18,745 nucleotides of DNA. Source: a virus. Taxonomy: Duplodnaviria; Heunggongvirae; Uroviricota; Caudoviricetes. Position numbers and translations under genes: made by a program. The stretch lies in IMG/VR virus record IMGVR_UViG_2563366948_000001, positions 1-18,745 of that record; one strand, given 5' to 3'. The notes under the pieces were generated by a model. It made no database searches and was not told the origin of the DNA. It saw only the letters and a program-made list of their open reading frames with translations. Positions within the stretch are counted from its first letter, which is position 1; every line of letters begins with the position of its first letter. This document shows, in pieces, positions 1 to 18,745 of this stretch.

Positions 1-1284
1 TTACTTCTTCGCCTCTGCAACCACTTTACTACCCACGCCGCGGTTATTGTATTCCCACATGCGGTTGTAGTTAGTGTCATTCAGATTGCGCTGTATTTCG
101 TCGTTATCATCTACGCTGCCGGTATTACCCGCAAACGGACGATTAGAGATCACCGCATCGGCCCACGGTTTAGCCGTGTTAAAACCTTCGTTGATGGCGC
201 TATCACGGATCACCACCTGACCGTTGGTATTGGCATCAACATCCAGCGAGCGGCCCAGTTGCGCCACACCATCACCGAAAGCATTGAAACGGCTGTTTAC
301 GGCGAGGAAACCGTAGTAAATGTTGGACAGCGTAGCCGGTGCAAACACATACGCTTCTTGCTGAGTACGTGAGTTCACCACGCGGAATTCGGTGTTATCG
401 AACACCACTGCGCCGCGACCAGAAACGATATCCACATCCCCTTCAATGTAGCTGTTGGTCACCAGCGTACGCGGCTGACGATTTGTTTCCAGACGGTTCT
501 GCACACCGCTGTTGGTGACAAAGAAGGTGTTCTGACGACCGAGAATGTTAACGTTGTTAATCTGTACCTGGTCACCATCAGTACGCAGTGCCACCGCCGG
601 ATGGTTACCTGCATCTACGCTATCGCCCAGCGTGTTTTCGATGGTCAGATTTTGCAGTTGCAGGCCATTGTTTTGTGACCAGAAGACCGCAGAGCAGAGA
701 ACACCGATACTGTCGCTGCGTTTGCTCTGGCAGCTATCGTACATATACCACGCTGGTTTACCTGGCATATATTTGCCGCGCGGGTTGACGTCGTGACGCC
801 AGTCGGCAGGGCTCATGCCACCATCAAGGGAAAGCCCAATCTTCACATCAATCGGTTTTTCACCTGTACCGTACAGAGTAATTCCACCCGGAGCGGCAGG
901 GACATATACCGTTCCCTGATACTCACCAGGCATCACGGCAATATACTGGCGCTTGTTGGTACGCTTGATAATTGCCGCATCTACCGCCGCCTGAATCGTG
1001 GTATGCGTTACACCTTGAGTGCCCGCCGGGCCGACAACAAAGTCAGGTTGCGCAGGCAGGGTAATCGGGGAAGGATTCCACGCTGCAGCACCTGGTGTCA
1101 GGGATGCAAAATAGTGTTGAGCATCGAAATTCTGCGCTTCTTTTGCCGACAGAATCGGGCGAGAAGAGGTACCAGGCGCGGTTTGATCAGAAGGACGTTG
1201 ATCGGGCGGGGTTGAGCTACAGGCGGTCAGCGTCACGCCAAAAGCCAATGCCAGCGCCAGACGGGAAACTGAAAATGTGTTCAC
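1..1284 (-). CDS. ybhC: YbhC-like outer-membrane lipoprotein (pectinesterase-family, putative acyl-CoA thioesterase); host gene flanking attB-lambda
   Basis: 427-aa ORF in track; N-terminal signal with lipobox (LTAC); sequence recognised as E. coli YbhC; start codon appears to be GTG. Confidence 0.8.
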   Translation of the reverse strand: MNTFSVSRLALALAFGVTLTACSSTPPDQRPSDQTAPGTSSRPILSAKEAQNFDAQHYFASLTPGAAAWNPSPITLPAQPDFVVGPAGTQGVTHTTIQAAVDAAIIKRTNKRQYIAVMPGEYQGTVYVPAAPGGITLYGTGEKPIDVKIGLSLDGGMSPADWRHDVNPRGKYMPGKPAWYMYDSCQSKRSDSIGVLCSAVFWSQNNGLQLQNLTIENTLGDSVDAGNHPAVALRTDGDQVQINNVNILGRQNTFFVTNSGVQNRLETNRQPRTLVTNSYIEGDVDIVSGRGAVVFDNTEFRVVNSRTQQEAYVFAPATLSNIYYGFLAVNSRFNAFGDGVAQLGRSLDVDANTNGQVVIRDSAINEGFNTAKPWADAVISNRPFAGNTGSVDDNDEIQRNLNDTNYNRMWEYNNRGVGSKVVAEAKK

Positions 1285-1330
1285 AGGTTGCTCCGGGCTA
1301 TGAAATAGAAAAATGAATCCGTTGAAGCCT

Positions 1331-1345
1331 GCTTTTTTATACTAA
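1331..1345. other. attL: lambda att common core (GCTTTTTTATACTAA) = attL crossover site
   Basis: Exact 15-bp lambda core between the ybhC start and int; bacterial arm to the left, phage P' arm to the right. Confidence 0.9.
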
Positions 1346-1418
1346 GTTGGCATTATAAAAAAGCATTGCTTATCAATTTGTTGCAACGAACAGGTCACTA
1401 TCAGTCAAAATAAAATCA
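1346..1418. promoter_or_regulatory. attP P' arm with Int arm-type and IHF binding sites
   Basis: Sequence GTTGGCATTATAAAAAAGCATTGCTTATCAATTTGTTGCAACGAACAGGTCACTATCAGTCAAAATAAAATCATTATTTG matches the lambda P' arm as I recall it. Confidence 0.75.
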
Positions 1419-2489
1419 TTATTTGATTTCAATTTTGTCCCACTCCCTGCCTCTGTCATCACGATACTGTGATGCCATGGTGTCCGACTTATGCCCGAGA
1501 AGATGTTGAGCAAACTTATCGCTTATCTGCTTCTCATAGAGTCTTGCAGACAAACTGCGCAACTCGTGAAAGGTAGGCGGATCCCCTTCGAAGGAAAGAC
1601 CTGATGCTTTTCGTGCGCGCATAAAATACCTTGATACTGTGCCGGATGAAAGCGGTTCACGACGAGTAGATGCAATTATGGTTTCTCCGCCAAGAATCTC
1701 TTTGCATTTATCAAGTGTTTCCTTCATTGATATCCCGAGAGCATCAACATGCAATGTTGTTGGGATGGCAATTTTTACGCCTGTTTTGCTTTGCTCGACA
1801 TAAAGATATCCATCTACGATATCAGACCACTTCATTTCGCATAAATCACCAACTCGTTGCCCGGTAACAACAGCCAGTTCCATTGCAAGTCTGAGCCAAC
1901 ATGGTGATGATTCTGCTGCTTGATAAATTTTCAGGTATTCGTCAGCCGTAAGTCTTGATCTCCTTACCTCTGATTTTGCTGCGCGAGTGGCAGCGACAGG
2001 GTTTGTTGTTATATGGCCTTCAGCTATTGCCTCTCGGAATGCATCGCTCAGTGTTGATCTGATTAACTTGGCTGACGCCGCCTTGCCCTCGTCTATGTAT
2101 CCATTGAGCATTGCCGCAATTTCTTTTGTGGTGATGTCTTCAAGTGGAGCATCAGGCAGACCCCTCCTTATTGCTTTAATTTTGCTCATGTAATTTATGA
2201 GTGTCTTCTGCTTGATTCCTCTGCTGGCCAGGATTTTTTCGTAGCGATCAAGCCATGAATGTAACGTAACGGAATTATCACTGTTGATTCTCGCTGTCAG
2301 AGGCTTGTGTTTGTGTCCTGAAAATAACTCAATGTTGGCCTGTATAGCTTCAGTGATTGCGATTCGCCTGTCTCGGCCTAATCCAAACTCTTTACCCGTC
2401 CTTGGGTCCCTGTAGCAGTAATATCCATTGTTTCTTATATAAAGGTTAGGGGGTAAATCCCGGCGCTCATGACTTCGCCTTCTTCCCAT
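1419..2489 (-). CDS. int: Lambda integrase (tyrosine recombinase)
   Basis: 356 aa beginning MGRRRSHERRDLPPNLYIRNNGYYCYRDPRTGKEF, recognised as lambda Int; adjacent to attL. Confidence 0.95.
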   Translation of the reverse strand: MGRRRSHERRDLPPNLYIRNNGYYCYRDPRTGKEFGLGRDRRIAITEAIQANIELFSGHKHKPLTARINSDNSVTLHSWLDRYEKILASRGIKQKTLINYMSKIKAIRRGLPDAPLEDITTKEIAAMLNGYIDEGKAASAKLIRSTLSDAFREAIAEGHITTNPVAATRAAKSEVRRSRLTADEYLKIYQAAESSPCWLRLAMELAVVTGQRVGDLCEMKWSDIVDGYLYVEQSKTGVKIAIPTTLHVDALGISMKETLDKCKEILGGETIIASTRREPLSSGTVSRYFMRARKASGLSFEGDPPTFHELRSLSARLYEKQISDKFAQHLLGHKSDTMASQYRDDRGREWDKIEIK

Positions 2490-2685
2490 TTCTGATCCTC
2501 TTCAAAAGGCTACCTGTTACTGGTCGATTTAAGTCAACCTTTACCGCTGATTCGTGGAACAGATATTCTCTTCCATCCTTAACCGGAGGAGGGAATATCC
2601 TGCACTCGCGTACCCATCGACGAACTGTTTCAAGGCTTCTTGGGCGTCGTTGGCGTGCGTTCCACTCCTGAAGTGTCAAGTACAT
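2467..2685 (-). CDS. xis: Lambda excisionase
   Basis: 72 aa MYLTLQEWNARQRRPRSLETVRRWVRECRIFPPP..., recognised as lambda Xis; 3' end overlaps int start as in lambda. Confidence 0.9.
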   Translation of the reverse strand: MYLTLQEWNARQRRPRSLETVRRWVRECRIFPPPVKDGREYLFHESAVKVDLNRPVTGSLLKRIRNGKKAKS

Positions 2686-2798
2686 CGCAAAGTCTCCGCA
2701 ATTACACGCAAGAAAAAACCGCCATCAGGCGGCTTGGTGTTCTTTCAGTTCTTCAATTCGAATATTGGTTACATTGTTTTCATATATGAATAAATAAA

Positions 2799-2978
2799 TT
2801 AGCTTTTTTCGTTGCCTTCGCGTTCTTTATTAATTTTGACAAACTTGTTTTTACCACGCTCTCCAAATGCGTCTTTAGAGTCGTTGTATCCGCAATCGCA
2901 GCACACATAATCACCAGACCATCCACGCATTGTTTTTTCTTTTGCAATATTTCCAGAACCGCATTTTGGACAAGACAT
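2799..2978 (-). CDS. Small zinc-ribbon protein (CPKC...CCDC), possibly Ea8.5-like
   Basis: Track ORF 2799-3011 starts at TTG; an internal ATG at 2978 is preceded by a GGAGG Shine-Dalgarno, giving 59 aa MSCPKCGSGN... with two Cys pairs. Confidence 0.5.
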   Translation of the reverse strand: MSCPKCGSGNIAKEKTMRGWSGDYVCCDCGYNDSKDAFGERGKNKFVKINKEREGNEKS

Positions 2979-3074
2979 ATCACTACCTCCAAAGCATGAG
3001 TGAGATGACAACGTAACATTGATTGGAGATTAACAATAGATTGCTGATGTAAAAGATATGTATAAGCTTCGCTT

Positions 3075-3728
3075 TCAAAGTGGAGGCTCTGGTAGCGGCA
3101 TCCAGTGAGTTACGTCATCCAAGATATTTCCTGATAAATACGTGAAAGCTCTATATTTTTTGTAATCAATTGGATTTACAACCCAGTTCCAATATGCGGC
3201 CACGATTTCACCTTGACTAAATGCCAGTAACATTTTGGTGTCTTCCGGCATTCGATCACTACAGCTTATCCAACCACCCGGAGTTACCGGAGAGTTGCCG
3301 CGTTCTTTAATGTGCAAGCGAGGCTCACCATCTTTTGGTTCAGGCCACTGGCGTTCCATGTTGATCTTCAATTTATTTTCCATAGCAGCGGTAATTTCAG
3401 CATCACTGATACCAGCACGGCGCTGTGCATCCCACAACAGAAACTGCATATCAGCCCACTCGCTAAGATCGTCTGGTTCGGCTGCGGCTTCCAGTGCCTC
3501 TTTTGAGAGATGTTTCAGCGGACCAATGGGGCCAACGCAGCCAAATGTGGAGTCAGACCATTTGGCATGCTCGTGGCGAATCTGTTCGCGTTCCAGTGAG
3601 GCGAGAGCGATTTTAAATGCTGTAAGCATGTGTGCTTGATCGTTGTCGAGTCCGAATGGCATTTCATCTCGTGCTGACTCAATACTGGTAATCGTATTTT
3701 GTAGCCATTCTTTGGTAAAAGTGCTCAT
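3075..3728 (-). CDS. Phage protein with MazG-like nucleotide pyrophosphohydrolase-type N-terminal region and DUF551-like C-terminal region
   Basis: 217 aa; central EALEAAAEPDDLSEWADMQFLLWDAQRRAGIS...AMENKLKIN resembles MazG-type helices; C-terminal ...THWMPLPEPP resembles the prophage DUF551 motif; ATGA overlap with upstream ORF. Confidence 0.6.
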   Translation of the reverse strand: MSTFTKEWLQNTITSIESARDEMPFGLDNDQAHMLTAFKIALASLEREQIRHEHAKWSDSTFGCVGPIGPLKHLSKEALEAAAEPDDLSEWADMQFLLWDAQRRAGISDAEITAAMENKLKINMERQWPEPKDGEPRLHIKERGNSPVTPGGWISCSDRMPEDTKMLLAFSQGEIVAAYWNWVVNPIDYKKYRAFTYLSGNILDDVTHWMPLPEPPL

Positions 3729-4096
3729 CGTAAAATATCCTCTATACTGGTAAGTCCTTCATTATTTAGCCAGATCATGGCGTCATCCGGCAACTTGCTG
3801 TCTGGTTTGGCGTTTTTGAGAGAGGAACTCAGTCGCTTAATCCACATTGTCACCTCAGTAATGCGCCTGTCTTTGCCTTCCAGCTCAACACGCAGCTTCC
3901 CTACCGTTAGCGCAATATCCTCGTTCTCCTGGTCGCGGCGTTTGATGTATTGCTGGTTTCTTTCCCGTTCATCCAGCAGTTCCAGCACAATCGATGGTGT
4001 TACCAATTCATGGAAAAGGTCTGCGTCAAATCCCCAGTCGTCATGCATTGCCTGCTCTGCCGCTTCACGCAGTGCCTGAGAGTTAATTTCGCTCAC
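3725..4096 (-). CDS. Ea22-like early-left protein (hypothetical)
   Basis: 123 aa; GTG start with AGAGAGG Shine-Dalgarno; GTGA overlap with orf73 stop, so translationally coupled. Confidence 0.55.
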   Translation of the reverse strand: MSEINSQALREAAEQAMHDDWGFDADLFHELVTPSIVLELLDERERNQQYIKRRDQENEDIALTVGKLRVELEGKDRRITEVTMWIKRLSSSLKNAKPDSKLPDDAMIWLNNEGLTSIEDILR

Positions 4097-4314
4097 TTCG
4101 AACCTCTCTGTTTACTGATAAGTTCCAGATCCTCCTGGCAACTTGCACAAGTCCGACAACCCTGAACGGCCAAGCGTCTTCGTTCATCTATCGGATCGCC
4201 ACACTCACAACAATGAGTGGCAGATATAGCCTGGTGGTTCAGGCGGCGCATTTTTATTGCTGTGTTGCGCTGTAATTCTTCAATTTCTGATGCTGAATCA
4301 ATGATGTCTGCCAT
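4093..4314 (-). CDS. TraR/DksA-family C4 zinc-finger protein (lambda Orf73-like)
   Basis: 73 aa with CCECGDPIDERRRLAVQGCRTCASC four-Cys zinc finger typical of TraR/DksA; lambda carries a TraR-like orf73 in this region. Confidence 0.75.
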   Translation of the reverse strand: MADIIDSASEIEELQRNTAIKMRRLNHQAISATHCCECGDPIDERRRLAVQGCRTCASCQEDLELISKQRGSK

Positions 4315-4360
4315 CTTTCATTAATCCCTGAATTGTTGGTTAATACGCTTGAGGGTGAAT

Positions 4361-4390
4361 GCGAATAATAAAAAAGGAGCCTGTAGCTCC
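4361..4390 (-). terminator. Candidate intrinsic terminator in the leftward operon
   Basis: GGAGC-CTGTA-GCTCC hairpin (4376-4390) followed on the minus strand by TTTTTTATTATT (4361-4375). Confidence 0.4.
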
Positions 4391-4412
4391 ATGATGATTT
4401 TGTTTTTCATGC

Positions 4413-4694
4413 TCACCGTTCCTTAAAGACGCCGTTTAACATGCCGATCGCCAGGCTTAAATGAGTCGGTGTGAATCCCATCAGCGTTACCGTTTCGCGG
4501 TGCTTCTTCAGTACGCTACGGCAAATGTCATCGACGTTTTTATCCGGAAACTGCTGTCTGGCTTTTTTGATTTCAGAATTAGCCTGACGGGCAATGCTGC
4601 GAAGGGCGTTTTCTTGCTGAGGTGTCACTGAACAAGCCCCATGTCGGCAAGCATAAGCACACAGAATATGAAGCCCGCTGCCAGGAAAATGCAT
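4413..4694 (-). CDS. Small early-left hypothetical protein (lambda b-region family; start uncertain)
   Basis: 93-aa ORF; no clear Shine-Dalgarno at the ATG; an in-frame GTG with upstream GGGG would give 71 aa. Confidence 0.5.
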   Translation of the reverse strand: MHFPGSGLHILCAYACRHGACSVTPQQENALRSIARQANSEIKKARQQFPDKNVDDICRSVLKKHRETVTLMGFTPTHLSLAIGMLNGVFKER

Positions 4695-4704
4695 TCAGTG
4701 GTTG

Positions 4705-4896
4705 TCATACCTGGTCTCTCTCATCTGCTTCTGCTTTCGCCACCATCATTTCCAGCTTTTGTGAAAGGGATGCGGCTAACGTATGAAATTCTTCGTCTGT
4801 TTCTACTGGTATTGGCACAAACCTGACTCCAATTTGAGCGAGGCTATGTGCCATCTCGATACTCGTTCTTAACTCAACGGGAGATGCTTTGTGCAT
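4705..4896 (-). CDS. Lambda Orf63-like protein
   Basis: 63 aa [30 protein letters not shown]..., recognised as lambda orf63 family; a G9 run immediately upstream serves as Shine-Dalgarno. Confidence 0.7.
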   Translation of the reverse strand: MHKASPVELRTSIEMAHSLAQIGVRFVPIPVETDEEFHTLAASLSQKLEMMVAKAEADERDQV

Positions 4897-5054
4897 ACAG
4901 CCCCCCCCCGTTTATTATTTATCTCCTCAGCCAGCCGCTGTGCTTTCAGGGGATTTCGGATAACAGAAAGGCCGGGAAATACCCAGCCTCGCTTTGTAAC
5001 GGAGTAGACGAAAGTGATTGCGCCTACCCGGATATTATCGTGAGGATGCGTCAT
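4869..5054 (-). CDS. Lambda Orf60a-like protein
   Basis: Track ORF to 5060; the ATG at 5054 overlaps the exo stop (ATGA) and gives 61 aa [19 protein letters not shown]... Confidence 0.65.
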
Positions 5055-5731
5055 CGCCATTGCTCCCCAAATACAAAACCAATTTCAGCCAGTGCCTCGT
5101 CCATTTTTTCGATGAACTCCGGCACCATCTCGTCAAAACTCGCCATGTACTTTTCATCCCGCTCAACCACGACATAATGCAGTCCTTCACGCTTCATACG
5201 CGGGTCATAGTTGGCAAAGTACCAGGCATCTTTTCGCGTCACCCACATGCTGTACTGCACCTGGGCCATGTAAGCCGACTTTATGGCCTCGAAACCACCG
5301 AGCCGGAATTTCATGAAATCCCGGGAGGTAAACGGGCATTTCAGCTCAAGGCCATTGCCGTCACTGCATAAACCATCGGGAGAGCAGGCGGTGCGCATAC
5401 TTTCGTCGCGATAGATGATCGGGGATTCAATAACATTTACGCCGGAAGTGAACTCAAACAGGGTTCTGGCGTCGTTCTCGTACTGTTTTCCCCAGGCCAG
5501 CGCTTTAGCGTTAACTTCCGGAGCCACACCGGTGCAAACCTCAGCTAGCAGGGTGTGGAAGTAGGACATTTTCATGTCAGGCCACTTCTTTCCTGATCGG
5601 GGCTTTGCTATCACGTTGTGAACTTCTGAAGCGGTGATGACGCCGAGCCGTAATTTGTGCCATGCATCATCCCCCTGTTCGACAGCTCTCACGTCGATCC
5701 CGGTACGCTGCAGGATAATGTCCGGTGTCAT
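5051..5731 (-). CDS. exo: Lambda exonuclease (Red-alpha)
   Basis: 226 aa [65 protein letters not shown]..., recognised as lambda Exo; AAGGTGG Shine-Dalgarno. Confidence 0.95.
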
Positions 5732-5772
5732 GCTGCCACCTTCTGCTCAGTGGCTTTCTGTTTCAGGAAACC
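5728..5772 (-). pseudogene. bet: bet (Red-beta) 3' remnant: last ~14 codons and stop only
   Basis: Minus-strand reading ends ...[14 protein letters not shown], matching the lambda Bet C-terminus; upstream residues do not match Bet. Confidence 0.7.
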
Positions 5773-5776
5773 GAAT

Positions 5777-6028
5777 TTTGCAGGGTGGGCTAACGATATC
5801 CGTCTGATGCGTGAACGTGACGGCCGTAACCACCGCGACATGTGCGTGCTGTTCCGCTGGGCATGCCAGGACAACTTCTGGTCCGGTAACGTGCTAAGTC
5901 CGGCCAAACTCCGCGACAAGTGGACCCAACTCGAAATCAACCGTAACAAGCAACAGGCTGGCGTGACAGCCGGAAAATCAAAACTCGACCTGACAAACAC
6001 TGACTGGATTTACGGGGTGGATTTATGA
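5777..6028 (+). pseudogene. O: Replication initiator O, C-terminal ~83 codons only (no start, no ori iterons)
   Basis: FAGWANDIRLMRERDGRNHRDMCVLFRWACQDNFWSGNVLSPAKLRDKWTQLEINRNKQQAGV...LDLTNTDWIYGVDL matches the lambda O C-terminus; stop overlaps P start (ATGA). Confidence 0.8.
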
Positions 6029-6726
6029 AAAACATCGCCGCACAGATGGTTAACTTTGACCGTGAGCAGATGCGCCGGATCGCCAACAACATGCCGGAAC
6101 AGTACGACGAAAAGCCGCAGGTACAACAGGTAGCGCAGATCATCAATGGTGTGTTCAGCCAGTTACTGGCAACTTTCCCGGCGAGCCTGGCTAACCGGGA
6201 CCAGAACGAACTGAACGAAATCCGCCGCCAGTGGGTTCTGGCTTTCCGGGAAAACGGGATCACCACGATGGAACAGGTTAACGCAGGAATGCGCGTAGCC
6301 CGTCGGCAGAATCGACCATTCCTGCCATCACCCGGGCAGTTTGTTGCCTGGTGCCGGGAAGAAGCATCCGTTACCGCCGGGCTGCCAAACGCCAGCGAGC
6401 TGGTTGATATGGTTTACGAGTATTGCCGGAAACGTGGCCTGTATCCGGATGCAGAGTCTTATCCGTGGAAATCAAACGCGCACTACTGGCTGGTTACCAA
6501 CCTGTATCAGAACATGCGGGCCAATGCGCTGACTGATGCGGAATTACGGCGCAAGGCTGCCGATGAACTGGCCTGTATGACAGCGCGAATTAACCGTGGT
6601 GAGGCGATACCTGAACCAGTAAAACAACTTCCTGTTATGGGCGGGAGACCGCTTAATCGTGTTCAGGCTCTGGCGAAGATCGCAGAAATCAAAGCGAAGT
6701 TTGGGCTGAAAGGAGCAAGTGTATGA
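6025..6726 (+). CDS. P: Lambda replication protein P (DnaB helicase loader)
   Basis: 233 aa MKNIAAQMVNFDREQMRRIANNMPEQYDEKPQVQQVAQIINGVFSQLLATFPASLANRDQNELNEIRRQW..., recognised as lambda P. Confidence 0.95.
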   Translation: MKNIAAQMVNFDREQMRRIANNMPEQYDEKPQVQQVAQIINGVFSQLLATFPASLANRDQNELNEIRRQWVLAFRENGITTMEQVNAGMRVARRQNRPFLPSPGQFVAWCREEASVTAGLPNASELVDMVYEYCRKRGLYPDAESYPWKSNAHYWLVTNLYQNMRANALTDAELRRKAADELACMTARINRGEAIPEPVKQLPVMGGRPLNRVQALAKIAEIKAKFGLKGASV

Positions 6727-6896
6727 CGGGCAAAGAGGCAATTATTCATTATCTGGAGACGCACAAGAGCTTCTGTGCGCCGGACGTTGCTGTGACAACA
6801 GGTGTGACATTAACCAGCATAAATCAGGCTGCGGCAAAAATGGCGCGGGCAGGAATCCTGGTCATTGATGGTAAGGTCTGGCGAACGTTTGTTTAA
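6723..6896 (+). pseudogene. ren: ren, truncated (57 codons; N-terminus lambda-like, premature end)
   Basis: ATG overlaps P stop; MTGKEAIIHYLETHKSFCAPDVAVTTGVTLTSINQAAAKMARAGILVIDGKVWRT then FV-stop, whereas lambda Ren is 96 aa. Confidence 0.6.
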
Positions 6897-7042
6897 CGGT
6901 TAGCTACTCAGGATGATAGGGCGGGGCAAGTGAGTATGAAGCGGATTTTAAGGAATGCCATCAGAGTTTGGAAATAAAGTGGGTTTTCTAGTGGCAAGAG
7001 ACTTGATAATATTTAGTTCTTTGAATCCAAGGAGATAGGGTT

Positions 7043-7537
7043 ATGAGAAAATTTATTTTAGCCTTTGTTATAAGTGCCTCGTTTACAGCAAATGCTGGTG
7101 TAGAGAAGTTAGGGCCGTGGATAACAAAGTCTGAGATAAATAAAATGACTGACCAGACTGACTTTGTGGCTCTTAATTTATCACCAGATTCATATAACAA
7201 AGCAGGTACTGATCGTGCAACTTCACTGGTGTTGCGTTGTAGTGATAACAAAACAGATGCCTATTTATCATTCAATGATTATATGGGTTCGGACAACCCA
7301 AGAATTACAGTGCGGTTAGATGGCGGAAAGCCGGTCAAGAGTGTTTGGGGAGGTGGGGAAGGCGGTGATTCTGCATTTGCTCCACAACCAATACAATTTA
7401 TAAAGACCTTGGCTAAGCATAAAAAAGCTATTTTTGGGTTTGAACCTTATGGATCAACTATGCAAGTAGTTGAGTTTGACTTGTCTGAGATTGATAAGGT
7501 TGTGGAAAAAATTTCACAGTCTTGCAATTGGAAATGA
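7043..7537 (+). CDS. Secreted or periplasmic protein of unknown function (moron)
   Basis: 164 aa with signal peptide MRKFILAFVISASFTANA and AxA cleavage motif; strong AAGGAGA Shine-Dalgarno 8 nt upstream; AT-rich codon usage unlike flanking lambda DNA; own terminator. Confidence 0.7.
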   Translation: MRKFILAFVISASFTANAGVEKLGPWITKSEINKMTDQTDFVALNLSPDSYNKAGTDRATSLVLRCSDNKTDAYLSFNDYMGSDNPRITVRLDGGKPVKSVWGGGEGGDSAFAPQPIQFIKTLAKHKKAIFGFEPYGSTMQVVEFDLSEIDKVVEKISQSCNWK

Positions 7538-7554
7538 CAAAAAAATTTCATATG

Positions 7555-7580
7555 AACCCAGTTGGCGCTGGGTTTTTTAT
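7555..7580 (+). terminator. Intrinsic terminator of the secreted-protein gene
   Basis: AACCCAG-TTGGCG-CTGGGTT hairpin followed by TTTTTTATTT, 18 nt after the stop codon. Confidence 0.7.
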
Positions 7581-8174
7581 TTCAGTAGCCAATAATGCAT
7601 TCAAAATCTCTTACTTGAGAAACGGCCTATTTGAGATTTCAGTCGTGGCAGGATGATCAGTTGATTCGAGTATTGACGCATTTGCGTTCGGAGCGATTAC
7701 AGTAGATTGTAAATAATAATGAGAAACACATAGCCACATAGCCACCCCGTGGTATTGAAACCATATAATGTTGGATTTGAAAACAGATCTTTTCCCATGT
7801 ATTAATAACTACATCCCCGCGAGTAATTCAAAAAGGAGGGCCCAATTTTGTCCGAGTTTTTGTATTCCCCCGCATGCCGCTGCGGAGCACTACATCTGAG
7901 TGTCTGACTAGGGGATAAAATTAGACTGGATAGTGAGAAGAAAGTGGCGCGCTAGGCTGTGCCGAGTGCTACCAGTACACCTTGGGGGTGTGCAGCTTTC
8001 GCCGAGACTGTAGTGGGTATCGGTTAATGCACGAAAAACCGAGAGGTCAGACAACCAATTTGCCGTAGGATTGTTTCCGGTGCGATACCGGTCTACTAAC
8101 TGAAAGCAATGCGAAAAAGCATAAACTCGGTCCTTCAGTCGCCCTACACACTATTTACTAAGAAGGGCTGAAGC

Positions 8175-8375
8175 ATGGATACAATTATTACATGGATGGG
8201 AGATCGTCTGTTGGGGGGGACACAAAAATCCGATCTGCGGCAGATGGCGATCACTGGATTAACTTCCGCGATTTGTTCAACAATTTTGTACACTGAAAAA
8301 TTAAAACATGGTGAGCCTATTAACCCAAACGAAGAAGAAAAACTTTATAGGCTTTGGTATGAAGGAAACGCTTGA
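8175..8375 (+). CDS. Small hypothetical protein (66 aa)
   Basis: ORF MDTIITWMGDRLLGG... with GAAGGG Shine-Dalgarno-like motif upstream; no recognisable family. Confidence 0.4.
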   Translation: MDTIITWMGDRLLGGTQKSDLRQMAITGLTSAICSTILYTEKLKHGEPINPNEEEKLYRLWYEGNA

Positions 8376-8581
8376 AAGAATAAAGCACAATTAAAACCTT
8401 TGATTTGCGATAATCAACTTGCCATAATTAAGTAATCGGAGCCTGAACAACTCCGGTGACTTCTGCGCTAAACGGGGACGTTTATGCGCACATACAATCC
8501 AACCTCTCTTCTCCATTCACAGATGCAGAAATGCACCTGCGATATTTTGCATCCAGCGTTTGATCTCTGCGGAGGTGAAGC

Positions 8582-9037
8582 GTGAACCTCCCACAAGATG
8601 GTATCAAATTGCATCGCGGTAACTTCACCGCTATCGGTCGGCAGATCCAGCCTTATCTGGAGGACGGCAAATGCTTTCGTATGGTGCTTAAACCGTGGCG
8701 CGAGAGACGCAGTCTTTCCCAGAATGCACTCAGCCACATGTGGTACAGCGAAATCAGTGAATACCTCATCAGCAGGGGTAAAACGTTCGCCACTCCAGCT
8801 TGGGTAAAAGATGCTCTCAAACACACTTATCTCGGTTATGAAACCAAAGAACTGGTTGATGTCGTAACCGGTGAAATCACCACCATTCAGTCATTACGTC
8901 ATACCTCCAATCTTGATACCGGAGAGATGTATGTCTTCCTGTGTAAGGTTGAAGCCTGGGCGATGAATATTGGCTGCCACCTGACTATTCCGCAGAGCTG
9001 CGAGTTCCAGCTGCTGCGCGACAAGCAGGAGGCGTAA
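8582..9037 (+). CDS. ybcN: NinB-family recombination protein (DLP12 YbcN-like)
   Basis: 151 aa, GTG start with GGAGG Shine-Dalgarno; sequence recognised as YbcN/NinB family ([13 protein letters not shown] motif). Confidence 0.8.
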
Positions 9038-9207
9038 TGGCTACACCGCTTATTCGTGTCATGAACGGACACATCTACAGAGTACCAAATCGTCGTAAGC
9101 GTAAGCCTGAGCTGAAACCATCCGAAATACCAACACTGCTCGGATATACCGCCAGCCTGGTTGATAAAAAATGGTTGCGACTGGCAGCAAGGAGGAATCA
9201 TGGCTGA
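9037..9207 (+). CDS. ninE: NinE-family protein
   Basis: 56 aa [56 protein letters not shown]; start overlaps ybcN stop (TAATG); below track size cutoff. Confidence 0.75.
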   Translation: MATPLIRVMNGHIYRVPNRRKRKPELKPSEIPTLLGYTASLVDKKWLRLAARRNHG

Positions 9208-9490
9208 TTTGAGAAAAGCAGCGCGTGGTCGGGAATGCCAGGTAAGAATCCCTGGCGTATGTAATGGCAACCCTGAAACGTCTGTACTGGCACATATCCG
9301 GCTGACTGGATTGTGCGGCACCGGTACGAAACCGCCAGACCTGATTGCCACCATTGCATGTTCTGCCTGCCACGACGAAATCGACCGCCGCACGCATTTT
9401 GTTGACGCTGGATATGCAAAAGAATGCGCGCTGGAAGGTATGGCGAGAACACAGGTTATCTGGCTGAAAGAGGGGGTTATTAAGGCGTGA
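9200..9490 (+). CDS. ybcO: YbcO-like nin-region protein (Cys-rich, putative metal-binding nuclease-like)
   Basis: 96 aa from ATG at 9200 preceded by AGGAGG; [37 protein letters not shown]...; track ORF extends upstream without a Shine-Dalgarno. Confidence 0.75.
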
Positions 9491-9849
9491 ATACCTACAG
9501 CATCACATTACCCTGGCCTCCGAGCAATAATCGCTATTACCGCCATAATCGCGGGCGCACGCACGTCAGCGCAGAGGGGCAGGCATACCGCGATAACGTC
9601 GCCCGAATCATTAAAAACGCAATGCTGGATATCGGCCTGGCTATGCCTGTGAAAATCCGCATTGAGTGCCACATGCCGGATCGCCGTCGCCGTGACCTGG
9701 ATAATCTGCAAAAAGCCGCTTTTGACGCACTCACTAAAGCAGGTTTCTGGCTGGATGATGCTCAGGTCGTTGATTACCGCGTTGTGAAGATGCCGGTTGT
9801 CAAAGGTGGAAAGCTGGAGCTGACCATCACTGAACTGGGAGATGAATGA
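9487..9849 (+). CDS. rusA: RusA Holliday-junction resolvase
   Basis: 120 aa [42 protein letters not shown]..., recognised as RusA. Confidence 0.9.
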
Positions 9850-9986
9850 TGTTTGAGTTTTATATGGCAGAACTTCTTCGCCACCGCTGGGGGCGTCTGC
9901 GCTTATATCGTTTCCCCGGTTCTGTTTTGACCGATTACCGAATACTGAAGAATTACGCCAAAACCCTGACAGGAGCAGGAGTATGA
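9846..9986 (+). CDS. ylcG: YlcG-like small protein
   Basis: 46 aa [46 protein letters not shown]; start overlaps rusA stop. Confidence 0.55.
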
Positions 9987-10071
9987 AGTCAGAGATAACA
10001 ATCAACTAATACTGTTTCGTTGATTTTTGCTTGTAATTGGCGTTCTGGTCTGATTTTTGTGGAGTAAGTTG

Positions 10072-10455
10072 ATGCGTGATATTCAGATGGTTCTTGAGCG
10101 TTGGGGAGCGTGGGCGGCTAATAATCATGAAGATGTGACCTGGTCGTCCATTGCCGCCGGTTTTAAGGGATTAATTACTTCAAAAGTAAAATCTCGCCCG
10201 CAATGTTGTGACGATGACGCGATGATCATTTGCGGGTGCATGGCCCGTCTGAAAAAGAACAACAGCGATTTGCACGATTTATTAGTAGATTATTATGTAG
10301 TCGGTATGACATTCATGTCACTGGCAGGTAAGCATTGCTGCTCTGATGGTTATATCGGGAAAAGGTTACAGAAGGCTGAGGGCATAATTGAAGGGATGTT
10401 AATGGCATTAGATATCCGGTTAGAGATGGATATCGTTGTTAATAACTCTAATTAA
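10072..10455 (+). CDS. quuD: Late-gene antiterminator Q (DLP12 QuuD / phage-21-type Q)
   Basis: 127 aa [34 protein letters not shown]... with Cys-rich zinc-binding region; GGAG Shine-Dalgarno; track ORF starts at an upstream TTG. Confidence 0.85.
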
Positions 10456-10469
10456 TATGCCAATTGTTT

Positions 10470-10643
10470 ACTAAAAATTATTAAAAATGGGGCGTTGAAA
10501 CGCCCCCAAAAATAAAGGGTAATATATAACAGAAGGTTTATATAGTTAGAAGCAAGGTTGTGCTTCTAAAGGAAGTGGCTTGAGGGAGCCACTTATATGT
10601 TGGGGAGGCAAAGCCTCCCACAACATATCTTTTAGTAATCAAA
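10470..10643 (-). ncRNA. Porin gene 3' UTR with three stem-loops plus terminator; candidate IpeX-like regulatory RNA
   Basis: Hairpins at 10548-10565, 10575-10592 and 10602-10618; terminator hairpin GGGGCG-TTGAAA-CGCCCC (10489-10506) followed on the minus strand by ATTTTTAATAATTTTT; in DLP12, ipeX maps between the nmpC stop and its terminator. Confidence 0.35.
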
Positions 10644-11726
10644 TTAGAACTGGTAAACCATACCTACAGCAACGATATCATCGGTAGCAACGCCAGATGC
10701 TTTCGTGAAATCGCTCTTATCAATCAGGTTGATTTTGTAATCAACAAAAGTGGACATATTTTTGTTGAAGTAATAGGTTGCACCTACATCAATATATTCA
10801 ACCAGGTCCTGATCACCCCACGCACCCAAGTCTTTTCCTTTAGATTGCAGGTAAGCAACGGACGGACGCAGACCGAAGTCGAACTGATATTGTGCAACTA
10901 CTTCGAAGTTTTGTGCTTTGTTGGCAATATGGTTATTACCAAAAACAGTCATGTTCTGGGTTTCAGAATAGGTGGTAGCCAGATAGATGTTGTTCGCATC
11001 ATATTTCAGACCAGCTGCCCATACTTCAGCATTTTGACCAGATGCATTCAGGCTGTTGTTACCGTAGATAACCTGATTATTAGTGCGGTCAGATTTAGCA
11101 TAGGTTGCACCTACACCGAATCCTTCATACTCATAAGTAGTGGAGAAACCGAAACCATCACCATTAGCTTCAGTTACGTCAGTGCGGTCATTTTTACCCT
11201 GATACTGAGCAGCAAAGTTCAGACCATCAACCAGACCAAAGAAGTCGTTGTTACGATAAGTTGCAACACCAGTGGTGCGACCAGTCATGAACACATCTGT
11301 TTGGGTCCAGGTATCGCCACCGAATTCTGGCAGAACGTCAGTCCACGCACCGATGTCGTATGCTACACCGTAGTTACGGCCGTAATCGATTGAGCCGTAG
11401 TCACCGAATTTCAGGCCTGCAAATGCAAGACGGGTTTTGTCTTTGGAGGAACCTTGAGATTCAGCGCGGTTGCCTTTGAATTCATATTCCCACTGACCGA
11501 AACCAGTCAGTTGATCGTTGATTTGGGTTTCACCTTTGAAGCCAAGACGGGCATAAGTAGTATCACCATCATCTGCATCATTAGAGGAGAAGTAGTGCTT
11601 AGCATTAACTTTCCCGTACAGATCCAGCTTGTTACTGTCTTTATTATAAATTTCAGCTGCCTGAGCAGACATCGCCATCAGTACTGATGCAGCTACAGCA
11701 GAAATTGCCACTGTTAATTTTTTCAT
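10644..11726 (-). CDS. nmpC: Phage-encoded general porin (OmpC/OmpF family; NmpC/Lc-like), apparently intact
   Basis: 360 aa with signal peptide [23 protein letters not shown], porin N-terminus [16 protein letters not shown] and C-terminal ...VYQF; sits between Q and the lysis genes on the opposite strand. Confidence 0.9.
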
Positions 11727-12154
11727 CGTGAGCCCTTTTTTTTGAACTATTATTAAAAAATGATGTCACTGCGCGATAAATATTCATCTAATCAATGTGA
11801 TTATTTCAAGATGTAAGTTTTGGTTTCTCGTTTGATTTGTGAAGTAGATCTCTATTTTTATCTGAACTTTTTTCTATCGAATCCTATTCATAGCTCTTGG
11901 CTGAATAAAAATAAATCTATTAGCCAATTTATATTAACGGCTGTTATTTATAAGTGCTCTATAATTTGAAGGTTCAATTTAAATCGGCTAAAAATAACAC
12001 TGGAAATTATTTGTTGGTTATTTGTTGAGATTTGCTTATGTATTTGTAGTGGTGTTTTCAATACTCGGTAGCATTCTCGCAAATATCATTTAGTGGTTTA
12101 CGTACGTAAAAAATTGGTTATGCTGTTAAGAGTGGTTACTTCGTCACACAGCTT
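11727..12154 (-). promoter_or_regulatory. AT-rich porin upstream region (promoter or regulator-binding candidate)
   Basis: ~430 bp strongly AT-rich with phased A/T tracts immediately upstream of the porin start; no ORF. Confidence 0.35.
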
Positions 12155-12187
12155 AAACCCGCCGTCGAGCGGGTTTTTCCATTTTTT
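12155..12187 (+). terminator. Candidate intrinsic terminator upstream of the lysis cassette
   Basis: AAACCCGC-CGTCGA-GCGGGTTT hairpin followed by TTCCATTTTTT; position computed from the holin ATG at 12300. Confidence 0.45.
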
Positions 12188-12299
12188 GAGTCTCGATATT
12201 AGCTGATAACCCAATACCTGAGTTATTCACTGACTCCGAGTCTGTTACGTTTCGTAGTATTCCCTCAATTTACACCCGCTTTGTCTGCGAGGTGGGGTT

Positions 12300-12515
12300 A
12301 TGAAATCCATGGATAAGTTAACAACGGGTGTCGCCTATGGCACCTCAGCAGGTAGTGCCGGGTACTGGTTTTTACAGCTGCTAGATAAAGTCACGCCCTC
12401 ACAGTGGGCGGCAATTGGAGTGCTGGGTAGCCTGGTATTTGGCCTGCTGACGTACCTGACAAACCTTTATTTCAAGATTAAAGAAGATAAGCGTAAGGCT
12501 GCGAGAGGTGAATAA
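12300..12515 (+). CDS. essD: Class II pinholin (S21-type) with dual-start motif
   Basis: 71 aa [29 protein letters not shown]...; Met1-Lys-Ser-Met4 dual start typical of S21 antiholin/holin; two TM segments. Confidence 0.9.
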
Positions 12516-13012
12516 TGTCGCCATCATTACGCAAGGCTGTAGCAGCTGCTATTGGTGGTGGGGCTGTTGCCATAGCGTCTGTGCTCATCACTGGTCCGAG
12601 TGGTGACGATGGTCTGGAAGGTGTCAGCTACATACCATATAAAGATATTGTTGGTGTATGGACTGTATGTCACGGGCATACAGGAAAAGACATCATGCTC
12701 GGTAAAACGTATACCAAAGCAGAATGCAAAGCACTCTTGAATAAAGACCTTGCCACTGTCGCCAGACAAATTAACCCGTACATCAAAGTCGATATACCGG
12801 AAACAACGCGCGGCGCTCTTTACTCATTCGTTTACAACGTGGGTGCTGGCAATTTCAGAACATCGACGCTTCTTCGCAAAATAAACCAGGGCGATATCAA
12901 AGGCGCATGTGATCAGCTACGTCGCTGGACATATGCTGGCGGTAAGCAATGGAAAGGTCTCATGACTCGTCGTGAGATTGAGCGTGAAATCTGTTTGTGG
13001 GGTCAGCAATGA
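12515..13012 (+). CDS. rrrD: SAR endolysin (signal-anchor-release lysozyme, R21-type)
   Basis: 165 aa; N-terminal Gly/Ala-rich weakly hydrophobic SAR segment [20 protein letters not shown], then lysozyme domain; start overlaps holin stop. Confidence 0.9.
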
Positions 13013-13470
13013 ACAGAGTAACCGCGATTATCTCCGCTCTGGTTATCTGCATCATCGTCTGCCTGTCATGGGCTGTTAATCATTACCGTGATAACGCCAT
13101 TACCTACAAAGCCCAGCGCGACAAAAATGCCAGAGAACTGAAGCTGGCGAACGCGGCAATTACTGACATGCAGATGCGTCAGCGTGATGTTGCTGCGCTC
13201 GATGCAAAATACACGAAGGAGTTAGCTGATGCGAAAGCTGAAAATGATGCTCTGCGTGATGATGTTGCCGCTGGTCGTCGTCGGTTGCACATCAAAGCAG
13301 TCTGTCAGTCAGTGCGTGAAGCCACCACCGCCTCCGGCGTGGATAATGCAGCCTCCCCCCGACTGGCAGACACCGCTGAACGGGATTATTTCACCCTCAG
13401 AGAGAGGCTGATCACTATGCAAAAACAACTGGAAGGAACCCAGAAGTATATTAATGAGCAGTGCAGATAG
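13009..13470 (+). CDS. rzpD: Rz i-spanin
   Basis: 153 aa from ATG overlapping the endolysin stop; N-terminal TM segment then coiled-coil-rich periplasmic domain. Confidence 0.85.
13229..13411 (+). CDS. rzoD: Rz1 o-spanin (lipoprotein), embedded in +1 frame within Rz
   Basis: 60 aa [23 protein letters not shown]... with lipobox LVVVGC and proline-rich mature region [15 protein letters not shown]; wholly inside Rz. Confidence 0.8.
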
Positions 13471-13501
13471 AGCTGCCCATATCGATGGGCAACTCATGCA
13501 A

Positions 13502-13795
13502 TTATTGTGAGCAATACACACGCGCTTCCAGCGGAGTATAAATGCCTAAAGTAATAAAACCGAGAAATCCATTTACGAATGTTTGCTGGGTTTCTGTTTT
13601 AACAACATTTTCTGCGCCGCCACAAATTTGGGCTGCATCAACAGTTTTCTCCTGTCCAATTCCCGAAACGAAGAAATGATGGGTGATGGTTTCCTTTGGT
13701 GTTACTGCTGTCGGTTTGTTTCCAACAGTAAACGTCTGTTGAGCACATCCTGTAATAAGCATTGCCAGAGCGGCAGAAAACAACATTTTTTTCAT
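13502..13795 (-). CDS. bor: Bor lipoprotein (serum-resistance, lysogenic conversion)
   Basis: 97 aa MKKMLFSAALAMLITGCAQQTFTVGNKPTAVTPKETITHHFFVSGIGQEK..., recognised as Bor; track ORF extends 16 codons upstream. Confidence 0.9.
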   Translation of the reverse strand: MKKMLFSAALAMLITGCAQQTFTVGNKPTAVTPKETITHHFFVSGIGQEKTVDAAQICGGAENVVKTETQQTFVNGFLGFITLGIYTPLEARVYCSQ

Positions 13796-13961
13796 CTTAT
13801 TATCCTGCATTGTTAAAAACGGCAGAATCCTATGTGACAACAATTAAACGATAGTTAAATGGATTGATGAAAATTAAAACTATATAGGTGGATGCTCAGC
13901 CTATTGGAGGAGGGGGGCACTCAGAATCCTGTGGAATGAAATAAACCGCTCTATCTGTCCA

Positions 13962-14186
13962 TTACCCTTTTAGCTGCGCTGTATCGTCGCCGTATTCCCG
14001 CATTAACCATGACCGTAGCCCGACGGGGAATTCCTTCTGCGTGAGTGTGCGGGAATAATCAAAAACGATGCACACCGGGTTTTTACCGCGTTTATGGTTC
14101 GCGGGGGTGTCCCTCATGCTCGCCAGTCCTGTGCGGGGGTGGAAGAAACAGGACGTGTATTCAGGTCTGTGTGACTGTGGTCGCAA
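13962..14186 (-). CDS. Hypothetical protein near the prophage late-region right end (YbcV-like?)
   Basis: 74-aa ORF MRPQSHRPEYTSCFFHPRTGLASMRDTPANHKRG...; weak recollection only. Confidence 0.3.
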   Translation of the reverse strand: MRPQSHRPEYTSCFFHPRTGLASMRDTPANHKRGKNPVCIVFDYSRTLTQKEFPVGLRSWLMREYGDDTAQLKG

Positions 14187-14271
14187 GACTTTTGTCGTTC
14201 AGCTATTAAATCCCATTACGAAGTAGACCAGAACGGCCAACGGGTCCTTTCCGGCGATCCGACAGGTTACG

Positions 14272-14283
14272 GGGCGGCGACCT
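14272..14283. other. cos: cosN cohesive-end sequence GGGCGGCGACCT; cosQ/cosB flank it within about 14200-14460
   Basis: Sequence CAGGTTACG-GGGCGGCGACCT-CGCGGGTTTTCGCTATTTATGAAAATTTTCCGG matches the lambda cos junction; lies 189 nt upstream of the nu1 ATG as in lambda. Confidence 0.85.
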
Positions 14284-14460
14284 CGCGGGTTTTCGCTATT
14301 TATGAAAATTTTCCGGTTTAAGGTGTTTCCGTTCTTCTTCGTCGTAACTTAATGTTTTTATTTAAAATACCCCCTGAAAAGAAAGGAAACGACAGGTGCT
14401 GAAAGCGGGCTTTTTGGCCTTTGTCGTTTCCTTTCTCTGTTTTTGGCCGTGGAATGAACA

Positions 14461-15915
14461 ATGGAAGTCAACAAAAAGCAGCTGGCTGACATTTTCGGTG
14501 CGAGTATCCGTACCATTCAGAACTGGCAGGAACAGGGAATGCCCGTTCTGCGAGGCGGTGGCAAGGGTAATGAGGTGCTTTATGACTCTGCCGCCGTTAT
14601 AAAATGGTATGCCGAAAGGGATGCTGAAATTGAGAACGAAAAGCTGCGCCGGGAGGTTGAAGAACTGCGCCAGGCCAGCGAGGCAGATCTCCAGCCAGGG
14701 ACTATTGAGTACGAACGCCATCGACTTACGCGTGCGCAGGCCGACGCACAGGAACTGAAGAATGCCAGAGACTCAGCTGAAGTGGTGGAAACCGCATTCT
14801 GTACTTTCGTGCTGTCGCGGATCGCAGGTGAAATTGCCAGTATTCTCGACGGGATCCCCCTGTCGGTGCAGCGGCGTTTTCCGGAACTGGAAAACCGACA
14901 TGTTGATTTCCTGAAACGGGATATCATCAAAGCCATGAACAAAGCAGCCGCGCTGGATGAACTGATAACCGAATCCCATCTCGGCAAGGAGCTGCTGGAA
15001 AAAGTCGAGCTGACGGAGGATAACGCCAGCAAACTGGAGGAGTTTTCGAAAGAGTGGCAGGACGCTAACGATAAGTGGAATGCCATGTGGGGCGTCAAAA
15101 TTGAGCAGACCAAAGACGGCAAACATTATGTCGCGGGTATTGGCCTCAGCATGGAGGACACGGAAGAAGGCAAGCTGAGCCAGTTTCTGGTTGCCGCTAA
15201 CCGTATCGCGTTTATTGACCCGGCAAACGGGAATGAAACGCCGATGTTTGTGGCGCAGGGCAATCAGATATTTATGAACGACGTGTTCCTGAAGCGCCTG
15301 ACGGCCCCGACCATTACCAGTGGTGGAAATCCACCGGCATTTTCCCTGACATCAGACGGAAAGCTGACCGCTAAAAATGCGGATATCAGTGGCAGTGTGA
15401 ATGCGAACGCCGGGACGCTCAACAATGTCACGGTAAATGAAAACTGTACGATTAAGGGCATGCTGGAGGCGACTCAGGTCAGAGGTGACTTCGTTAAAGC
15501 TGTATCCAAATCATTCCCGAAACAGGCTGGTACGTGGGGTAATACGGAAACACCAAACGGGACGGTTACAGTCACCATCAGCGATGATCATAACTTTGAC
15601 CGTCAAATCATTATTCCGCCCATTATCTTTAACGGAATAGCGTATAGCGATCCGGGAAGTGGTAATAACCCGGGAGGTACAAGATACACGGGTTATGGTT
15701 TTGAAGTTCGCAAAAACGGTGTATTAATCGCATCCAGAGAAACTAAAGGGGCCATTCCCGGTAGCTACAGTGCGGTTATTGATATGCCGAGTGGCAGGGG
15801 AAGCGTCACTCTGGAGTTTAAGGTTTTCCATAAAGGCAATCAGCGGGCAGGTAATATCACCGACTGTACGGTGATTGTGACCAAAAAAGCCGCTTCCGGC
15901 ATCAGTATTCGTTGA
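14461..15915 (+). CDS. In-frame fusion: terminase small subunit Nu1 (residues 1-169) joined to the C-terminal ~315 residues of tail-tip protein J
   Basis: N-terminus [34 protein letters not shown]...AALDELI is lambda Nu1; from [21 protein letters not shown]... onward it matches the lambda J C-terminal region; single 484-aa ORF. Confidence 0.85.
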
Positions 15916-15984
15916 AATTGTTATAACCCATATAAGGGCACCAGAAATGGTGCCTTTTTTATTGCAGAAAAGCGAGAGGTAATT

Positions 15985-16353
15985 ATGCGTAAACTTTATG
16001 CCGCCATTTTTTCCGCAGCCATTTGTCTGGCCGTATCCGGTGCGCCTGCATGGGCATCTGAACATCAGTCCACGCTGAGCGCGGGGTATCTTCATGCCTC
16101 GACGAACGTTCCCGGCAGCGATGATCTGAACGGGATTAACGTGAAATACCGTTATGAGTTTACGGACACACTGGGGCTGGTGACGTCATTCAGCTATGCA
16201 GGAGACAAGAATCGCCAGCTGACCCGTTACAGCGATATCCGCTGGCATGAAGATTCCGTTCGTAACCGCTGGTTCAGCGTAATGGCGGGGCCGTCTGTGC
16301 GCGTGAATGAATGGTTCAGCGCGTATGCGATGGCGGGTACCTTCTGCCCGTAA
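15985..16353 (+). pseudogene. lom: lom (Ail/Lom-family outer-membrane protein), truncated after codon 118
   Basis: MRKLYAAIFSAAICLAVSGAPAWASEHQSTLSAGYLHAS... matches lambda Lom up to ...WFSAYAMAG, then TFCP-stop; lambda Lom is ~206 aa. Confidence 0.8.
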
Positions 16354-17539
16354 GGTGAATGGTAAGGCGCTTTCAGCGGATATAACACTGACGCCGAAAG
16401 ATATTGGTACGCTTAACTCAACAACAATGTCATTCAGCGGTGGTGCTGGTTGGTTCAAATTAGCAACGGTAACCATGCCACAGGCGAGTTCTGTTGTTTC
16501 AATTACGTTGATTGGTGGCGCGGGATTTAACGTGGGGTCACCTCAACAGGCAGGTATATCTGAACTTGTTTTGCGTGCAGGTAATGGTAATCCGAAGGGG
16601 ATTACTGGTGCTTTATGGCAGCGCACATCGACAGGGTTTACAAATTTTGCCTGGGTCAATACATCTGGTGATACTTACGATATTTACGTTGCAATCGGAA
16701 ATTATGCGACTGGTGTAAATATTCAATGGGATTATACCAGTAATGCCAGCGTGACGATTCATACGTCACCAGCATATTCTGCTAATAAGCCGGAAGGGTT
16801 AACGGACGGTACAGTTTATTCACTCTATACGCCATCAGAGCAGTTTTATCCGCCTGGCGCACCAATCCCGTGGCCATCAGATACCGTTCCGTCTGGCTAT
16901 GCCCTGATGCAAGGGCAGACTTTTGACAAATCTGCATACCCGAAACTTGCAGCCGCTTATCCGTCAGGCGTGATCCCTGATATGCGTGGCTGGACGATTA
17001 AGGGCAAACCCGCCAGTGGTCGTGCCGTATTGTCTCAGGAACAGGACGGCATTAAATCGCACACCCACAGCGCCAGCGCATCCAGTACGGATTTGGGGAC
17101 GAAAAACACATCGTCGTTTGATTACGGAACCAAATCCACGAATAACACCGGGGCGCATACCCATAGTATTAGCGGGACTGCAAATAGTGCCGGTGCGCAC
17201 CAACACAAGAGTTCCGGTGCATTTGGTGGCACGAACACGAGCATTTTCCCTAATGGTTATACCGCGATTTCAAATCTAAGCGCGGGGATTATGAGCACAA
17301 CAAGCGGTAGTGGCCAGACTCGTAATGCAGGGAAGACATCATCAGATGGTGCTCATACCCACTCGCTGTCCGGCACTGCTGCAAGCGCAGGCGCACACGC
17401 ACATACTGTCGGTATTGGTGCTCATACGCACTCCGTTGCGATTGGCTCACATGGACACACCATCACCGTTAACGCTGCTGGTAACGCGGAAAACACCGTC
17501 AAAAACATCGCATTTAACTATATTGTGAGGCTTGCATAA
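16339..17539 (+). pseudogene. stf: Side tail fibre Stf, C-terminal ~400 codons only
   Basis: Open frame continuous with track ORF 16307-17539; contains tail-fibre-type His-rich repeats (GAHTHS, GAHQHK, GAHAHT, GSHGHT); no credible start; abuts truncated lom. Confidence 0.75.
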
Positions 17540-18634: not shown

Positions 18635-18678
18635 TTCCGCGCAGACGATGACGTCACTGCCCGGCTGTATGCGCGAGG

Positions 18679-18745
18679 TTACCGACTGCGGCCTGAGTTT
18701 TTTAAGTGACGTAAAATCGTGTTGAGGCCAACGCCCATAATGCGG
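18679..18745 (-). CDS. insA: IS1 InsA, 3' portion only (5' end beyond window)
   Basis: Minus-strand reading ...[18 protein letters not shown]-stop with stop at 18679-18681; contains the slippery A6C site. Confidence 0.8.

Follow-up and report, generated by a model that had tools for sequence, protein, structure and literature searches.

A bet::O junction in a lambda/DLP12-mosaic prophage at the lambda attachment site of Escherichia coli, very probably the scar of one short-homology-assisted deletion

The window analysed here, the whole stretch of 18,745 nucleotides, begins with a host gene and the left attachment site of a lambdoid prophage, continues through int, xis and exo, and contains a point close to position 5768 at which the 3′ ends of two phage genes, bet and O, meet directly. 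Features were placed by comparison with lambda (NC_001416; annotated with exo at 31348-32028, bet at 32025-32810, O at 38686-39585 and P at 39582-40283) and with the prophage of E. coli C21 (NZ_CP184155.1), which matches the window as a whole better than any other complete E. coli genome. The features needed for what follows are these, in window coordinates:

1-1284, minus strand: host gene ybhC, with the annotation taken from the C21 relative
1331-1345, plus strand: attL core of the lambda attachment site, GCTTTTTTATACTAA, an exact match (0.01 expected by chance)
1419-2489, minus strand: int, full length, 353/356 residues identical to lambda Int
2467-2685, minus strand: xis, full length, 71/72 residues identical to lambda Xis
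5051-5731, minus strand: exo, full length (226 aa), 222/226 residues identical to lambda Exo, Pfam YqaJ at E = 2e-29
5728-5769, minus strand: bet 3′ remnant, collinear with lambda 32025-32066 and identical to C21 bet through 5769
5764-5772, no strand: deletion junction, given by the overlap of two BLAST segments and by base-by-base comparison
5768-6028, plus strand: O 3′ remnant, collinear with lambda 39325-39585 and identical to the C21 O-like gene from 5768
6025-6726, plus strand: P, full length (233 aa), 228/233 residues identical to lambda P, Pfam Phage_lambda_P at E = 1e-61
6723-6896, plus strand: ren with a premature stop, 57 aa versus 96 in lambda by comparison of the translations
18257-18745, minus strand: IS1, which starts at about 18257

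The attL core is the left end of the prophage, and homology to lambda begins at lambda 27724, which is the att core. On L006, a locus that carries the same junction and extends further to the right, the attR core (ACTTTTTTATACTAA, 1 mismatch) lies at 17500-17514 and adjoins ybhB (ybhB-bioA). The element is a lambda-type prophage inserted at attB between ybhC and ybhB. The part of L006 that lies beyond the window and before attR (13797-17300) holds an AraC-family (AppY-like) gene and IS3 fragments, and the whole prophage remnant amounts to about 20.6 kb.

BLASTN against lambda divides the region around the junction into two blocks, which share one orientation and have zero intervening sequence. 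Window 3878-5772 corresponds to lambda 30177-32069 at 97.4% identity and runs from ea22 through exo to the 3′ end of bet, and window 5764-6967 corresponds to lambda 39321-40525 at 91.9% identity and covers the 3′ end of O, P and ren. In terms of the lambda annotation, the left block includes the final 45 nt of bet and the right block the final 265 nt of O, and neither arm continues collinearly past the junction. When the window is compared base by base with both lambda and C21, identity on the bet side ends at 5769 and identity on the O side begins at 5768, which places the crossover at the AA at 5768-5769. These two nucleotides lie within an imperfect 9-nt microhomology at 5764-5772, in which the bet sequence is CAGGAATCC and the O sequence CAGAAAACC. 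The lambda interval absent from the window is 32067-39326. No filler DNA or IS is present at the junction, where bet and O sequences abut directly. Because bet and O are both truncated at their 5′ ends, the polarity is that of a deletion here and not of an insertion in the relatives.

The bet remnant consists of the stop codon (5728-5730) and 13 codons, or 14 (through 5772) if the two codons rebuilt by the microhomology are counted, and the O remnant consists of codons 214-299 and the stop, that is, 86 codons from 5768, or 87 with a fortuitous Arg codon at 5765. The original prediction had proposed the last ~14 codons of bet on the minus strand through 5772 and ~83 codons of O from 5777, and it was right to within three codons for both genes; the gap that it left between them at 5773-5776 does not exist, the breakpoint lying at 5768/5769 without filler. 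Over the C terminus of lambda O, 85/87 residues of the remnant are identical. No Pfam Phage_rep_O domain is left in it, the N-terminal DNA-binding domain being missing; the C-terminal part of O is its P-binding portion. On either side of the two remnants, exo and P had been described as intact, and both are full length and about 98% identical to their lambda counterparts, with the start of P overlapping the stop codon of O in the same arrangement as in lambda. A 92-aa ORF reads across the junction (5750-6028), and for annotation it is of value that the 73-92-aa "hypothetical" ORF at this position is an O fragment. Downstream of P, the shortened ren has a parallel in C21, where the ren copy is also annotated as frameshifted with an internal stop, and the ren defect may for this reason be older than the bet::O deletion.

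The loci carrying the junction were found by exact-sequence look-up of a Nu1-J fusion protein encoded further to the right in the window (see below). From position 4461 to its end, the window matches scaffold KE137010.1 of GCA_000408345.1, a scaffold-level draft, at 100%; its identity with an ENA metagenome assembly and with a second NCBI isolate is 99.94-99.95%. A 36-nt sequence spanning the junction is exact in all three carrier loci (L006, L007 and L008), and the carriers are near-clonal, with 7-8 differences in 13.8 kb. Furthermore, NCBI, ENA and Logan together yield 17 further contigs with the 92-aa junction ORF, making about 18 assemblies with the source; GCA_012562785.1 and GCA_012575885.1 are among the carriers. 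The ORF is flanked in every contig by an intact 226-aa exo and an intact 233-aa P, and it lies downstream of ybhC-int-xis wherever the contig extends far enough. Because independent assemblies reproduce it, the junction is real DNA and not a misassembly. Among 5,426 complete E. coli genomes, no place covers at least 80% of a 161-nt junction-spanning query, and the exact 36-nt junction has no match in GTDB species-representative genomes, IMG/VR viral contigs or JGI metagenome contigs. Given that the complete E. coli genomes are without a match, the scar is confined to a small lineage known from draft and metagenome assemblies only.

The C21 prophage occupies the same ybhC/att-lambda site and carries the same int-to-exo and O′-P-ren-nin arms as the window, and in it the segment between the arms is still in place. 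Identity to the C21 prophage is 99.93% over window 1-5772, and the alignment resumes 5.9 kb later in C21 with window 5764-14152. Only 3 differences separate the two in 1-5769 (5.8 kb) and none in 5768-9499 (3.7 kb), so that the C21 prophage effectively represents the ancestor state. Judged from this comparison, the deletion is very recent relative to C21. The lost segment, with the same AA crossover at its ends, is C21 locus positions 6769-12690. One deletion of ~7 kb of lambda-equivalent sequence had been predicted, and this stands in lambda units (7,260 bp), but the ancestor itself lost 5,922 bp.

According to the record annotation and Pfam, the C21 segment that is absent from the window contains most of bet (RecT family), gam, a kil-like "cell division inhibitor", a 293-aa protein and a 254-aa HipA_2-like kinase at the rex position, a 230-aa repressor with HTH and Peptidase_S24 domains (S24/LexA-type), a YdaS/Cro-like gene, a YdaT-domain protein and the Phage_rep_O domain from the N terminus of a 339-aa initiator. 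The deleted interval also includes five iterons (TTACCYGAATCAGGTAA), at C21 locus 12371-12487, and none remain anywhere in the window when up to 3 mismatches are allowed. The original prediction that the immunity and ori region was lost is borne out, the repressor gene, the Cro-like gene, the O N terminus and the iterons all being located in the deleted C21 segment. Its list of the genes concerned (cI, rex, cro, cII, N and cIII) does not carry over, however, because the ancestor held a different, non-lambda immunity module, and lambda gene names for the lost segment therefore denote equivalence only. That the prophage could neither make repressor nor replicate, as was also proposed, would follow from the sequence, there being no repressor gene or iteron in the window.

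Three further observations concern the gene content of the two prophages. In C21 (L002 8579-10211), the HipA_2-like kinase and the 293-aa protein, the latter without a Pfam match, sit next to the repressor gene, and the two may form a defence or abortive-infection pair. A porin gene (OmpC/NmpC-type) lies at 10644-11726 on the minus strand of the window, and 137/201 of the right-arm differences from C21 fall within window 10500-11500; this 1-kb patch looks like a recombined or diversifying surface-protein region. Between ren and the nin genes, a 164-aa ORF (7043-7537, plus strand) shows a weak similarity to VasI/"TagO" (type VI secretion-associated); it seems to be a moron that entered the nin region, and C21 has a copy of it too.

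The right part of the prophage carries two additional scars. An in-frame 484-aa ORF at window 14461-15915 is a fusion of Nu1 to J, with its junction at 14964-14967; it combines Pfam Phage_Nu1 (small terminase subunit, residues 1-164) with the C-terminal tail-tip part of J (Phage_Tail_Tip, Ig_GpJ_C). Identity to C21 nohD extends through 14967 and identity to J of E. coli KE58 starts at 14964, leaving a 4-nt overlap, GATA. C21 keeps a complete nohD followed by the large terminase gene, inside which its locus ends, whereas the window fuses Nu1 to J. The third scar truncates lom (15985-16353) to 122 aa and joins it to the middle of a side tail fibre gene (16307-17539); at this lom::stf junction (16325-16338), about 2.07 kb is missing relative to KE58, and there is imperfect homology of about 14 nt. 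The Nu1::J and lom::stf deletions removed all head genes and most tail genes. In GCA_012744775.1, positions 9780-13394 of locus L009 correspond to window 14240-17854 at 99.8%, with the identical Nu1::J fusion, the cos site and the lom/stf/tfa remnant, and there the fusion sits behind a different, Qin-like late region (cold-shock genes, DUF1327 and GnsAB). Recombination between prophages has apparently exchanged the scarred right end.

We conclude with high confidence that the bet::O junction is the scar of one illegitimate, short-homology-assisted deletion in a lambda/DLP12-mosaic prophage at att-lambda. The deletion brought codon 214 of an O-type replication initiator up against the final 13-14 codons of bet and, presumably in a single step, took out about 5.9 kb of the ancestor (7.26 kb in lambda units). 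Lost with this segment were gam and most of bet, the kil-like gene, the early promoters and operators for both leftward and rightward transcription, the genes for the repressor, the Cro-like protein and YdaT, the HipA-like pair, the N-terminal DNA-binding domain of O and the origin iterons. The imperfect patch across the junction, in which 7/9 positions match, is found in 0.7% of random endpoint pairs (P = 0.007), and the exact overlap of 2 nt has P = 0.16 against such pairs. These features fit joining by slipped mispairing or end joining, a mechanism that we infer, since the exact microhomology is only 2 nt and within chance. IS-mediated adjacent deletion was considered and rejected, as there is no IS at the junction and the nearest one is IS1 at 18257 and beyond.

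A single event is the parsimonious reading because there is one clean junction and practically zero divergence from the undeleted C21 prophage. A series of at least two deletions, or one deletion with later trimming, might also have given the present junction; the same prophage has at least two other deletion scars, and nested events with the same final junction would leave no trace of their intermediates in the final sequence. No intermediate was found, however, and all carriers found share one junction. Moreover, the closest relative has the entire segment in place and flanks that hardly differ from those of the window, which leaves little time for multiple events, so that a stepwise origin is unlikely. 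The same relative bears on the idea that the two arms are of different origin, brought together by illegitimate recombination between two co-resident lambdoid prophages or with an infecting phage. Lambdoid prophages are mosaic, and here a left arm that is 97-99% lambda-like stands beside O-P-ren at 92% identity to lambda, with DLP12-like sequence from nin to lysis beyond, but C21 carries this mosaic undeleted, with the same arm order, at the same site and with near 100% identity beside the junction. The mosaic is thus older than the deletion, a second parent is unnecessary, and recombination of this kind is extremely improbable. As for an artefact, produced when prophage repeats were collapsed in a draft genome, GCA_000408345.1 is assembled to scaffold level and exo/bet and O/P are multi-copy in many E. 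coli (median 2 places per genome); the probability is nevertheless negligible, given the identical junction in NCBI isolates, the ENA metagenome and Logan assemblies (17 contigs and the source) and a breakpoint with no long repeat to mislead an assembler, only 2-9 nt. A single deletion in a prophage already arranged like that of C21 is the reading we retain.

The loss of this segment has predictable consequences for expression. Because the truncated genes diverge at the junction, exo (leftward) and O′-P (rightward) are left without upstream promoters, and exo lacks both pL, from which it is natively transcribed, and its partners bet and gam. A scan of 5000-7100 for promoters and terminators with crude consensus sequences found nothing at the junction; the 3 promoter-like hits elsewhere in this interval, versus 1.6 expected, are at chance level. 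In lambda, expression of int and xis needs pL and N antitermination, or the cII-dependent promoter pI, and P, the nin genes and Q are transcribed from pR. The remnant would have no early promoter for int/xis, exo, P, the nin genes or Q, and, from the crude scan and textbook lambda regulation, it is predicted to be transcriptionally orphaned. By its gene content, it would be without immunity, non-inducible and non-replicating. Despite intact attL, attR, int and xis, it would then be a cryptic prophage that is locked in and passively inherited by the host lineage.

One could argue that the endpoints are not accidental and that the O C-terminal fragment with intact P, and/or exo, is a selected and expressed module, acting as a decoy that titrates P or O of superinfecting lambdoid phages or as a modulator of host DnaB. 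The O remnant is the P-binding part, in frame and coupled to intact P; furthermore, independent scars elsewhere (described below) also end in the 3′ end of O or the 5′ end of P, and the prophages at the icd site keep P intact. If this were true, O′-P expressed at a low level would be a dominant-negative decoy, and the recurrent O/P endpoints would mark a favoured route of prophage domestication. Yet the possible starts at 5750 and 5807 have no promoter-like site or Shine-Dalgarno sequence ahead of them, scars of the DLP12 type truncate P, and the clustering of endpoints stems largely from a query limited to 4800-7000. In addition, the deletion is very recent relative to C21, and carriers that differ by so little (7-8 positions in 13.8 kb) are near-clonal, so the intactness of exo and P needs no selection. 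We therefore consider a selected module very unlikely.

Compared with lambda, the window shares the att core, its int, xis, exo, O C terminus and P encode protein sequences with 97-99% identity, and on either side of the junction the genes come in the lambda order. Rz and bor of the window prophage are lambda-like at the DNA level. The immunity module, the nin region, Q, the holin and endolysin genes and Nu1 of the ancestor, in contrast, are not those of lambda. From nin to lysis the window resembles DLP12, the defective lambdoid prophage of K-12, whose gene order there is that of window 8400-14500: ylcH, ybcN, ninE, ybcO, rusA, ylcG and quuD, and onward an nmpC-type porin gene, essD, rrrD, rzpD, bor, ylcI and nohD. 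DLP12 sits at argU with a different integrase, whereas the window prophage is at the lambda att site.

Further scars of this type exist. In DLP12, as annotated in K-12, the bet-to-O segment is missing as well, with exoD′ directly abutting peaD′ (the P remnant) and renD following; its endpoints lie inside exo and P, both of which are pseudogenes, whereas those of the window lie in bet and O and leave exo and P intact. A search with window 4800-7000 found two more classes. A DLP12-type relative at argU (L005) has a 204-nt bet remnant joined to a truncated P (lambda 32220::39679). Prophages at the icd site, for example in E. coli Z1323HEC0011 and Z1323CEC0014, have the 5′ end of exo joined to the last ~79 codons of O (lambda 32002::39348), followed by intact P and ren, with endpoints 64 bp and 21 bp from those of the window. 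They differ from the window prophage in integration site, integrase and breakpoint (exo being truncated), and their flanks are 2-6% diverged from it. Descent of the icd-site exo::O scar from the window scar through a further 86-bp deletion was rejected, because the window flanks equal those of the undeleted prophage whereas the icd-site flanks have diverged by this amount. An endpoint hotspot was likewise rejected, as mainly a matter of ascertainment with a query covering only 4800-7000. Since breakpoints, integration sites and flanks differ, the DLP12-type, icd-site and window scars represent independent events.

These comparisons confirm ordinary prophage decay and add a further instance of a scar type already well known in E. 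coli. Beyond annotation, where the element at att-lambda can now be recorded as a dead remnant, the significance is small. The bet::O scar is, however, a clean example of decay almost caught in the act, in which an undeleted sister prophage pins the breakpoint to the base and defines what was lost. A review of "grounded" prophages, which covers DLP12, Rac, Qin and e14, views degeneration as removing deleterious genes (PMC6379469). With DLP12 and the icd-site prophages, the window prophage indicates that loss of the switch together with the origin recurs independently in lambdoid prophages of E. coli, in agreement with the published view (PMC6379469 and works cited there) that degeneration removes dangerous functions.
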